64,000 nucleotides of DNA. Origin: Amoebidium appalachense (taxonomy: Eukaryota > Protista > Ichthyosporea). The position numbers and the translations under genes are program-made. Positions 26,101 to 29,100 of this stretch are shown here, in pieces. The notes beneath the pieces are model-generated. The model saw nothing but the letters and a program-made list of their open reading frames with translations. It was not told the DNA's origin and made no database searches. Each line of letters opens with the position of its first letter. The stretch's first letter is position 1. The stretch is from positions 11,629,651 through 11,693,650 of the forward strand of contig CAVNZM010000003.1 in the NCBI GenBank assembly GCA_963693365.1, written 5' to 3'.

Positions 26101-29100
26101 GGGGTTGGTGACCGTGTGTGGTACTGCGTGTTGGGGGGGGGGGGGGGGGGGGGGGGGGGGGGGGGGGTAGGTGGATGTAAGTGTGGGTGGGTGGGTGAGT
26201 GGGTGATTGGGCTATTGGGTATGTGTGGGTGTGCAGTGGGTCGGGAAGGAGGGGGGGGGGGGGGGGGGGGGGGGGGAATGGTGAAGGGGTGGGTGTGTGG
26301 GTTAAGGGGATGGAAGTTTTGTTCGGGGCTCCAAAATAAAATGTGTGGATGGTGCTGTGTGCATGTAGGTGGTGTAAGAGAGAAACCAATCGGTGTGTGT
26401 TCGGTCTTTGCATGTTGATAGGTGTGTGCATGCAAATATGGACCACAAAAGTGAAAACCTGACACATGTCACTGTCACACCAAAGCTTTTGGTTGCCCAT
26501 GGACGATTATGACCATTGCTATTTTCAGGTTTTTGCCGTCAACACGTTTTGTTAACATGGTCGGCTGGCAAAGCTGGGTGAGGGCAATTTATAAAATAAA
26601 ATAAAACCCAAAAAAAAACAAAAAAAAAAAAAAAAAAAACACACTACGTCGACGTCTGCCACTGACTATCGACCTGTCTAGGGTACGGTTTTTTTTTTTG
26701 TTTTTTTTTTTTTTTTTTTTTTTTTGGGGGGGGGGGGGGGGGGGGGGGGGGATGGTGCTAACTTTAAGGGTCTTGGTTGCTAAAAAGGGGTTTTGGGTTC
26801 ACAGAGCCGGAGGGGTAGCGGCAGGGGAGGACGGTGCCGTGTATCTTGTGTGCCTGGTGGTGGGGGTGTCTCAGGACGTCGTGGCCTCCTTCGACCTATA
26901 TCCTGCTATGAAGTGATGCGGGGGTTGTGTGTGGCCCTGCACATTGCATTAGCTGGTTCTGTTTGTTCCCTTTTTGTCGTTTCCCCCCCCCCCCCCCCCC
27001 TCCCTCCCCCCCCCCCTGCCCACCCCTTCCCTTCCCCCGGACGCACTCCCCTACACACAAAGACACACACCATGGCACACACACACGCACACATACACAA
27101 ACATTCGCGCACGCACGCACACACGCGCGCGCACACACACACACACACACACACACACACACACACACACACACACACACACACACACACACACACCACC
27201 CCATCCCCCACCCCACCTACCCACCGACCCACCCCCTCCCACCACCACCACCCACTCAATACCCCCACCCTCCTCCATTAGTTTTCTTTCTTTCTTTCTT
27301 TTTATGGGATGGGGTGGGGGGGGGGGGGGTTCTGGGTGCGCCATAGTACCCAACCAGTGACGTAGGCCCCTTGACCCCCTGCACGTTCATTGGGGATCTT
27401 GACGAGTACTGCCAGGGCATAGCCCCCATGCTGCCCCTTACCCCAGACACGGCCCTAGCCGTTGATGCAAGAAAAGCACTGGCCGACTGGCATGAAGCCG
27501 CAGTGCGTGTTTTCCTTCTTTGCTTGCTTCCCTCTCTCTCTTTCCCTGCGCTCTCCTCTCTCTCACCCTCCCTCTGCCCCTCTCTCCCTCCCCCTCCCTC
27601 CCCCCCCCAGTCTTCTCTACCTTCCCTTCCCCTCCCACCCTCTGCCCCTTGCCCTTGCCTGCATAAGTAACCCTGCTCGTCTCTGATCAAGACGGGTGAC
27701 CCACCCATGTTCAAGTGAAACAGTATCTGAGTTGGGTTTCGTTAACGAGGTGAATGGGTCGAAACTCGCGTACTGTGGATGACGTGGGCCCCCCCTGAGG
27801 ATGGGCTCTGCTTATTATGCATACTCTTTCAAATGGTTTGCATTCTGCATTGTGTTATCCGTTGTTCTTGTGTACTTCGTACTGTATGACGCATTCAAAC
27901 CCCCCCCCCCCCCCCCCCTCCCCCCCCCCCCCCCCCCCCCCCCCCCCCCCCCCCCCCCCCCCCTCTCTCTCTCTCTCTCTCTCTCTCTCTCTCTCTCTCT
28001 CTCTCTCTCTCTCTCTCCCCCCCCCCCCCCTCCCTCCCCCCCCCCCCCCCCTCCCCTCTCTCTCTCTCTCTCTCTTTCTCTTTCTCCCCATACCACGCCC
28101 CCTTACCCTTCTCTTCCTTCTACCGTTCCTACCACCACCACCAGCAGCTCAACCATTAAACTCAAACCAAACCTCATCCACACAAAGAGACACATGCACA
28201 CCTCTTCATCATTTCTTTCTCTCTTTCATGGTCCCATGGCTTCATCCCATTGCATAACACGTTTTTTTTTTTTTTTTTGTTTTGTTTTGTTTTGTTTTGT
28301 TTCTTTTCACGAGCAATCGTTCAAAACCAAATACCCCTTCAGACTACAGACCCCCGGGAAAATTTCAATCTGAAATAACGTCAAAAATGGAAGTATCTCA
28401 GGTCGACGTCACATGCCATAGCGATTTCAGCTGGCGGCGGTTAATATTTGGTAGTCTGACAGCGTACACAGTCTATTTTTAATCTTTGTTCCTTAATTTT
28501 GGATGTAACTTTCTGCCCCCAGTGCTATGCCCCAAGTAAAATTCCCGGACGCCCCTACAGGTTGCCTACGTGCACCGCTGTGTGCGGGACTATGGCGAGG
28601 TACTTGCAAGAGTACTGTTTGCACTGTGCACTCAGCACGTTGGTGCCGTGCAGTGCCCCGGGGGGGTGCAGGCACAAGGGGACTTCCATAGGTGGGTGTG
28701 TGTGTTGGGTGGTGTAGGGTGGGGGTGGGGGTGAGTGTCTTTTTAGGTGTTGTTTGTGGGTATCTGCCGAAGTTACTGTTGGTGTGTTCCATTCATGTTG
28801 CAAAGGGGGGGAGGGGCCGGGGGGGGGGGGGGGGGGGGGGGGGAGGGGTGATGGAGGGGGGGGTGAGGATGGATGTGGTTGGATGCGGGTTTGAGTCTGG
28901 GTAGTGTACGTTTGTGTGGGTGGGTAGGTGGGTGTGATGGCTGCATGTATGTGTACAGTGGTAGCTAGGGCCGTGTGGTGGGAGAGGGGGAAGAAAGGCC
29001 TCATGACTGGGTATGACCATTTGTGATTATTCCTTTGTATGGGTTAAAAGCCTGCTGCAACTGTGGTTGCGGCGGCTATTGGGGTGGGAGGCCGGGAAGG

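Follow-up and report, generated by a model that had tools for sequence, protein, structure and literature searches.

The dispersed element described here is probably a non-autonomous Penelope-like retroelement of the Naiad type, which carries a complete hammerhead core in a non-circular order; self-cleavage is predicted directly 3' of a GUU triplet. It was analyzed in a window of 64,000 nucleotides, namely, positions 11,629,651 to 11,693,650 of Amoebidium appalachense contig CAVNZM010000003.1. Judged from its sequence, the core has the SGC order, and the element belongs neither to hammerhead types I–III nor to type SGC as defined. Confidence is higher for the fold than for the activity. A preceding sequence-only reading had proposed a structured retroelement with a possible pseudoknot and a possibly catalytic RNA. 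The structured retroelement and the pseudoknot were upheld, and a catalytic RNA is probable; its assignment to an undescribed RNA family was given up because a hammerhead core in SGC order was found. Two features, a predicted K-turn and a tandem unit of approximately 452 nt, had been overlooked.

Copies, units, and insertion sites

Seven copies of the element (A, B1, B2, D, E, F, and G) were found in the window using BLAST and nhmmer, with a common 3' end at poly-C and variable 5' ends (Table 1). The five copies listed previously were all recovered in place, and F and G, which had been missed, were added. Copies A and E were 93.6% identical over 251 nt; B1 and B2 matched E at about 80% over 179 nt, and D, which is degenerate and lacks its 5' half, at 79% over 174 nt. 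Copy B2 matched B1 with 100% identity over 341 nt. The element is non-coding. Its length had been given as approximately 250 nt, which proved too short: E is 5'-truncated, A carries approximately 65 nt of additional 5' sequence that also occurs in other copies in the contig data, and the B unit spans 452–453 nt, head to tail.

Table 1. Element copies in the window and parts of the predicted fold in copy E (window positions)
Feature	Position	Strand	Remarks
Copy A	1479..1790	-	core intact; 13-bp stem III; predicted cut 1646/1645
Copy B1	14150..14602	-	full ~452-nt B-subfamily unit; core intact; predicted cut 14350/14349
Copy B2	14603..14943	-	5'-truncated; directly upstream of B1 in tandem; pseudo-LTR-like
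Copy F	18269..18363	-	3' fragment
Copy D	24841..25011	+	5'-truncated; mutated core; predicted dead
Copy E	27650..27899	+	5'-truncated; A-type subfamily; 3' end adjoins poly-C
Copy G	58310..58361	-	3'-terminal fragment
Closing stem	27663..27815	+	27663-27669 pairs with 27809-27815
Helix b and hairpin c	27671..27697	+	b pairs with 27802-27805, just 3' of CUGAGGA; loop of c carries palindrome UGAUCA
Stem II, 5' strand	27698..27703	+	pairs with 27755-27760; G10.1-C11.1 is 27698/27760
Helix e, 9 bp	27704..27713	+	pairs with 27780-27788; counterpart of the SGC "interaction" helix linking stems I and II
K-turn (predicted)	27714..27719	+	bulge of 3 nt, then G.A and A.G opposite 27777-27779
Stem III, 3' strand, and GUU cleavage triplet	27720..27733	+	triplet 27731-27733; predicted cut 27733/27734
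Stem I	27734..27736	+	pairs with 27792-27794
Hairpin i	27739..27748	+	perfect 10-nt palindrome
GAAA core and stem III, 5' strand	27761..27776	+	
CUGAGGA core (C3-A9)	27795..27801	+	
3' tail, U/G-rich	27822..27899	+	ends at poly-C insertion site

In public DNA sequencing runs, 5,059 and 4,631 contigs matched E, and 14,482 and 9,531 matched B1, these contig counts not being equivalent to copy numbers. The contig depth on B1 dropped steadily toward the 5' end (14601), and several contigs connected 14601 to 14150–14151. From these tandem joints, the unit is approximately 452 nt long, and tandems recur elsewhere. Part of E was present in 20 of the 24 listed sequencing runs, under six organism codes, none of the runs with E being given as RNA. 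The shared 3' end, the 5' truncation, the head-to-tail units of approximately 452 nt, and the thousands of contigs are as expected for a non-autonomous Penelope-like element. The element is high-copy and is likely a non-autonomous retroelement of this kind (Naiad-type). Regarding an autonomous partner, which would carry a reverse transcriptase with GIY-YIG, no reverse transcriptase was found among the 150 of 342 open reading frame pieces of the window that were scanned.

The ends of all six insertion sites (1479, 14150, 18269, 24841, 27650, and 58310) bear poly-C. All six are intronic and sense to the host gene, those of D and E by inferred exons. The chance of this all-sense orientation was approximately 0.03, as calculated from 93 sense poly-C and 70 poly-G tracts. 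Among the contigs, fragments of other subfamilies were also observed, in which GAAAC, GUU, and the G-A pairs of the K-turn were kept and adjacent stem III bases were changed, and one contig copy was without the entire stretch between both stem II strands.

A hammerhead core in non-circular order

The stems listed by the sequence-only reading and the swaps it noted from copy to copy are present in the sequence. The long stem terminates in GU, paired to the AC of GAAAC, and one unpaired U comes next; the nucleotides after this U pair with those immediately 5' of CUGAGGA; and the helix previously described as "crossing" terminates in a G-C pair immediately before GAAA. These three helices thus correspond to hammerhead stems III, I, and II, respectively, so the crossing pairing is present and is read as stem II. 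The core nucleotides CUGAnGA, GAAA, and NUH are present in A, B1, B2, and E and broken in D. Around the core, stem I has 3–4 bp, stem II 5–6 bp, and stem III 5–13 bp, with R10.1-Y11.1 and A15.1-U16.1. The order of the blocks is cleavage site, GAAA, and CUGAnGA, which differs from the circular order of types I–III, and the nucleotides 3' of CUGAGGA form 0 pairs with those 5' of GAAA. In the earlier reading, CUGAnGA and GAAA had been set aside; on the present fold, they do form a hammerhead with a GUU site, stems I and III, and the crossing pairing as stem II.

Helix b and hairpin c separate CUGAnGA from stem II and are predicted to form a four-way junction there. Stem I is GGG/CCC in A and E and GGAG/CUCC in B (4 bp, with an A-U swap), and a C.C mismatch at 27727/27769 in stem III occurs only in copy E. 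The palindrome of hairpin i is perfect in both subfamilies, though their sequences differ, which hints at dimers.

The three core strands were sought in any order, with 20,000 shuffles per copy for comparison. Exactly one solution was obtained for each intact copy, at the homologous site, and none on the opposite strand. A solution was obtained in 0.4–0.6% of the shuffles, and in 0.01–0.06% when longer stems were required. A descriptor for the whole window, written after the element was seen, gave full matches at A, B1, B2, and E and nowhere else; in 150 shuffled windows, 1 core-only match and 0 full matches were obtained. On comparing A with B, identity was found at 17 of 17 core positions and 60 of 91 positions in the rest of the domain (post hoc Fisher test, p = 0.002). 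Conservation of the flanking blocks was equal to that of the core itself. No variants in the triplet, GAAAC, or CUGAGGA were found among the 34 rows at ≥3% in the E contigs, and no core variants among 40 of the 42 rows at ≥1% on B1. A variant of approximately 1% at 14320 would disrupt one stem II pair.

In a four-row alignment, 96.7% of the cells pair, and slid controls pair at 30–44%. Three of the 46 pairs are changed on both sides, a result matched by 15 of 500 shuffles. This covariation signal is modest and comes from only two independent subfamilies. Explicit registers raised the number of swaps by three for stem III and by one for stem I. Moreover, the C-G pair 27702/27756 of E is U-A in >90% of the contig depth in run X2, a compensatory change in stem II. 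The minimum free energy (MFE) by itself is unremarkable: the z-scores were +0.11, −0.40, and −0.45 for whole copies; −0.5, −1.4, and −2.3 for the cores, with the B reverse strand also at −2.3; and −0.78 for a circular fold of the B unit.

A scan for K-turns gave one match each in E, A, and B1 and none on the reverse strand. The third pair of the K-turn is A.G in A and E and U.U in B, and the distance from the core to the K-turn is 16 steps in both subfamilies despite compensatory swaps. As in standard K-turns (Kt-7, box C/D), a 3-nt bulge is followed by G.A and A.G pairs, and a third A.G pair, as in A and E, belongs to the best-folding type (PMC4382518). Unlike the standard ones, the predicted K-turn would lie within a retroelement ribozyme. 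The presence of the K-turn in both subfamilies, with the box C/D type in B, and the sense-intronic positions would also suit a retroposon derived from a Pol III SINE or snoRNA, with Snu13/15.5K binding its K-turn and C/D-like boxes and with hammerhead motifs that are coincidental. Such a derivation is highly improbable, as no tRNA was found using ARAGORN and no family in Rfam, the A and B boxes are absent, and two internal T4+ runs lie in the B unit; it would also leave the hammerhead geometry, the tandem units, and the matching Naiad 3' ends unexplained.

The Rfam search for a known family, proposed as a check of the earlier reading, gave no gathering-level match in the window; near E, three weak matches were at chance level, and near B there were none. 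An HDV-like fold is a nested double pseudoknot of P1-P2-P3/L3-P1.1-P4 with a catalytic C. The pseudoknot of the element could accordingly be P2 and hairpin i P4, with the catalytic C in the linker before the 3' strand of the pseudoknot, and the B linker resembles the HDV J4/2 strand. However, P3/L3 beside P2 and the upstream P1 strand are absent, the would-be catalytic position 27751 is T or G in the A/E subfamily with no C variant at ≥3%, and an Rfam match is lacking. An HDV-like identity is thus largely refuted, and its probability is close to negligible. Twister, pistol, and hairpin folds appeared not to fit either. Exact-pattern scans gave 0 matches in viral contigs (three scans) and 0 in prokaryote genomes, and one metagenome match (L001) was rejected as a chance match in bacterial-looking coding DNA.

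Comparison with known ribozymes and retroelements

Hammerheads of S-G-C and C-S-G order self-cleave in vitro at 0.004–0.19 per min, and the SGC rates are slow, at 0.007–0.19 per min, in the available sections of Eckert et al. 2023 (PMC10085705). In the same sections, the separation of CUGAnGA from its stem II strand is assumed to be impossible. The sources given there are metatranscriptomes and metagenomes, the authors having found none of these ribozymes in known organisms save for one bacterial GCS candidate, and type CSG comes from just two metagenome sequences. The element resembles type SGC in the order of site, GAAA, and CUGAnGA, in its full core and double pseudoknot, and in that stem I is joined directly to stem II while an extra helix ties their other ends. 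It differs in that its stem II strand lies upstream and not after CUGAnGA, with helix b and hairpin c intervening, and in that its rod has a K-turn and its I–II linker bears a hairpin. Unlike the SGC and CSG ribozymes in those sections, it sits in a eukaryote genome and in a retroelement. No tested case in which CUGAnGA is disconnected from stem II was present in the portions of the literature compared; variants of the hammerhead core are treated in PMC3088659.

Naiad and most Chlamys elements are reported to be without a canonical hammerhead in the sections of Craig et al. 2021 (PMC8557442) that were covered, and some Naiads are labeled "HHR_core" or "HHR_half_core" without a fold, 8 being marked half core. 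The layout of part of the 54 Naiads was read by eye only, the family names being inferred from file order. In nine consensus 3' ends of the supplement (approximately six distinct types), from four animal phyla, the split layout was recognized in this manner, the hosts being a ctenophore, cnidarians, a crustacean, and cephalopods. Read by eye, it runs from helix b, hairpin c, and a stem II strand through e, stem III with GUA, stem I, stem II, and GAAA to e', stem I', CUGAUGA, and b'. This order with GUA appeared in 7 of the 15 Naiad places of one motif listing, and two further places had AUA and UUC triplets; apart from the type CSG ends described below, the other places viewed lay in coding sequence or failed to match. 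In several of these 3' ends, stem I has 5–6 bp, and the stems are often longer than those of the element. At least four other Naiad 3' ends (nematode, arachnid) appeared by eye to carry an intact type CSG, with CUGAnGA joined to stem II; one of them was among the same 15 places. Since these have the same topology, the corresponding helix of the split layout is identified as stem II. GUU triplets occur in predicted hammerheads of Hydra-clade Penelope-like elements in the same source. Among the matches listed, no Chlamys 3' end viewed fits the layout. A different structured-looking motif, fitting neither layout, was noticed by eye in hemichordate Naiad 3' ends.

In line with the sequence-only reading, a new catalytic class without relation to hammerheads and built on the closing stem and hairpin c was considered, since the sequences of the closing stem, helix b, and hairpin c barely vary in the element. 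In the Naiads viewed, helix b and hairpin c appear to vary freely while the hammerhead core stays, and the likelihood of such a class is very slight.

With Naiads, in the part of PMC8557442 compared, the element shares 5' truncation, partial tandems, microsatellite targets, and the split layout read by eye in at least nine consensus 3' UTRs, the sequence comparison being confined to short motifs. Unlike them, it is non-coding (approximately 452 nt), targets (C)n and not (TA)n, and occurs in an ichthyosporean, Naiads being reported from animals. Its (C)n insertion preference and head-to-tail non-autonomous copies are like those of Chlamys elements and partners such as MRC1, whose hosts, however, are green algae, plants, and slime molds, and whose 3' ends, where viewed, lack the ribozyme layout. 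The available part of PMC11244446, on an ichthyosporean genome, does not mention a Penelope element. In the literature covered on hammerheads with Naiad, Penelope-like, or permuted forms, which comprised few subscription papers and partial texts, no paper gives Naiads a permuted hammerhead or describes the split form.

Animal non-LTR retrozymes are likewise non-coding tandem units, of 150–450 nt with one hammerhead per unit, in the available sections of PMC7229834 and bioRxiv 10.64898/2026.07.22.740005, where an origin from Penelope-like elements is proposed and some are described as cutting well only as dimers (further background in PMC7761336). Unlike the element, they have type I hammerheads and proven circular RNAs and avoid introns; the ribozyme of the element is permuted, most of its copies are dispersed and truncated, and its circles are hypothetical.

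If the predicted cleavage is true, the scheme of six hammerhead permutations would be incomplete, since a block assumed to be unbreakable would occur in broken form in nature. In that case, non-circular hammerheads would be abundant in eukaryotic genomes, beyond a metatranscriptome curiosity. Moreover, the view that Naiads proliferate without canonical hammerheads would be revised, self-cleavage would again be near-universal in Penelope-like elements, and Naiad-type elements would extend to a unicellular relative of animals. The widest version of this proposal, to which we give slightly less than an even chance, is that the split wiring is a seventh natural hammerhead arrangement and a hidden Naiad ribozyme across animals, and that an ichthyosporean Naiad-type retrozyme cuts tandems into circles of approximately 452 nt under the control of the K-turn or of dimers.

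Predicted mechanism, activity, and genomic setting

In the proposed mechanism, CUGAnGA would dock on stem II across the chain break, with helix b and hairpin c keeping it in place through a four-way junction. Stems I and II would be tied together at their distant ends by helix e, and the K-turn would bend helix e back toward stem III. Tandem read-through transcripts would be cut once per unit into monomers of approximately 452 nt, which might be ligated to circles. An autonomous Penelope-like reverse transcriptase with an endonuclease (Naiad/Chlamys-type) would copy the units into poly-C tracts, and repeated rounds in some cases would yield partial tandems such as B2-B1. Cleavage may be slow, or may require a second copy or a protein. 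A short C run at the unit junction might anneal to the G strand once it is nicked, although this is only a guess because the Poseidon element PAc starts without such pairing in the part of PMC11167929 consulted.

Several properties count against activity. Stem I has only 3–4 bp, as has helix b, and GUU is a weaker hammerhead triplet. In the MFE folds of A and E, CUGAGGA is partly buried in other pairings. By a rough estimate, a gap of 47–59 Å between axes would arise if a single molecule retained the e/K-turn rod while stacking stems II and III; a dimer, a switch, or a faulty estimate would account for this. The same geometric puzzle is noted for some SGC ribozymes in the sections of PMC10085705 compared. 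The 5' truncations of the B1 contigs showed no pile-up at the predicted cut. Runs X13 and X14, guessed to be RNA, gave 16 and 146 contigs on E, and X14 gave 244 on B1; an 89-nt X14 contig crosses the predicted B cut unchanged, for which uncut RNA, ligated RNA, or DNA are all possible sources, so that it speaks neither for nor against cutting. Separately, a variant fragment of the core at 27746–27822, fused to unrelated upstream sequence, was deep in X13/X14 and rare in the DNA runs.

The short stem I, the GUU triplet, and the alternative folds would suit the same element and fold having lost all or nearly all catalytic activity in this lineage, kept as a recognition signal for the reverse transcriptase or cut only with protein. 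Every insertion is sense-intronic, which is also in line with this, and efficient cutting in such copies could be costly to the host. In the part of PMC11167929 consulted, the hammerhead of the Poseidon Penelope-like element PAc cleaved only with protein added and was dispensable for insertion in vitro. However, the catalytic nucleotides are the same in subfamilies that are only approximately 80% alike, without common variants, and introns could tolerate rates as slow as those of type SGC (0.007–0.19 per min; PMC10085705, in part). Loss of activity is considered unlikely, and a self-cutting element remains the preferred reading.

The window is intron-rich with many microsatellites and, according to Pfam, contains an NAA35 gene (−) and an Njmu-R1-like gene (+). 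A 70-aa NAA35 exon had its best match in an Ichthyophonus hoferi protein (63%, E 4e-19) among 1.84 billion representatives, the next matches having E 2e-9 or weaker; this one exon points to an ichthyosporean as the likely host. At 22400–23150, the two genes seemingly start head-to-head, as inferred from sequence, and a short direct duplication lies near 22980–23020. A tandem-duplicated multi-exon gene with Lipase_3-like and hydrophobic exons occupies 34400–44550 and 55080–63805 (−), its blocks being 76–99% identical; a protein Atlas search gave a lipase lead only (0.85), and word-index protein searches gave no relatives. In an NAA35 intron, a degenerate inverted repeat (15282–15610 / 15875–16112, 76–86%) with an AT-richer core is possibly a MITE. 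Minisatellite arrays were found at 29459–30065, 47745–48088, 62803–63253, 8888–9658, and 38913–39530 with 58795–59168; their units are of 31, 66, or 76 nt or irregular, and one array is common to both gene duplicates.
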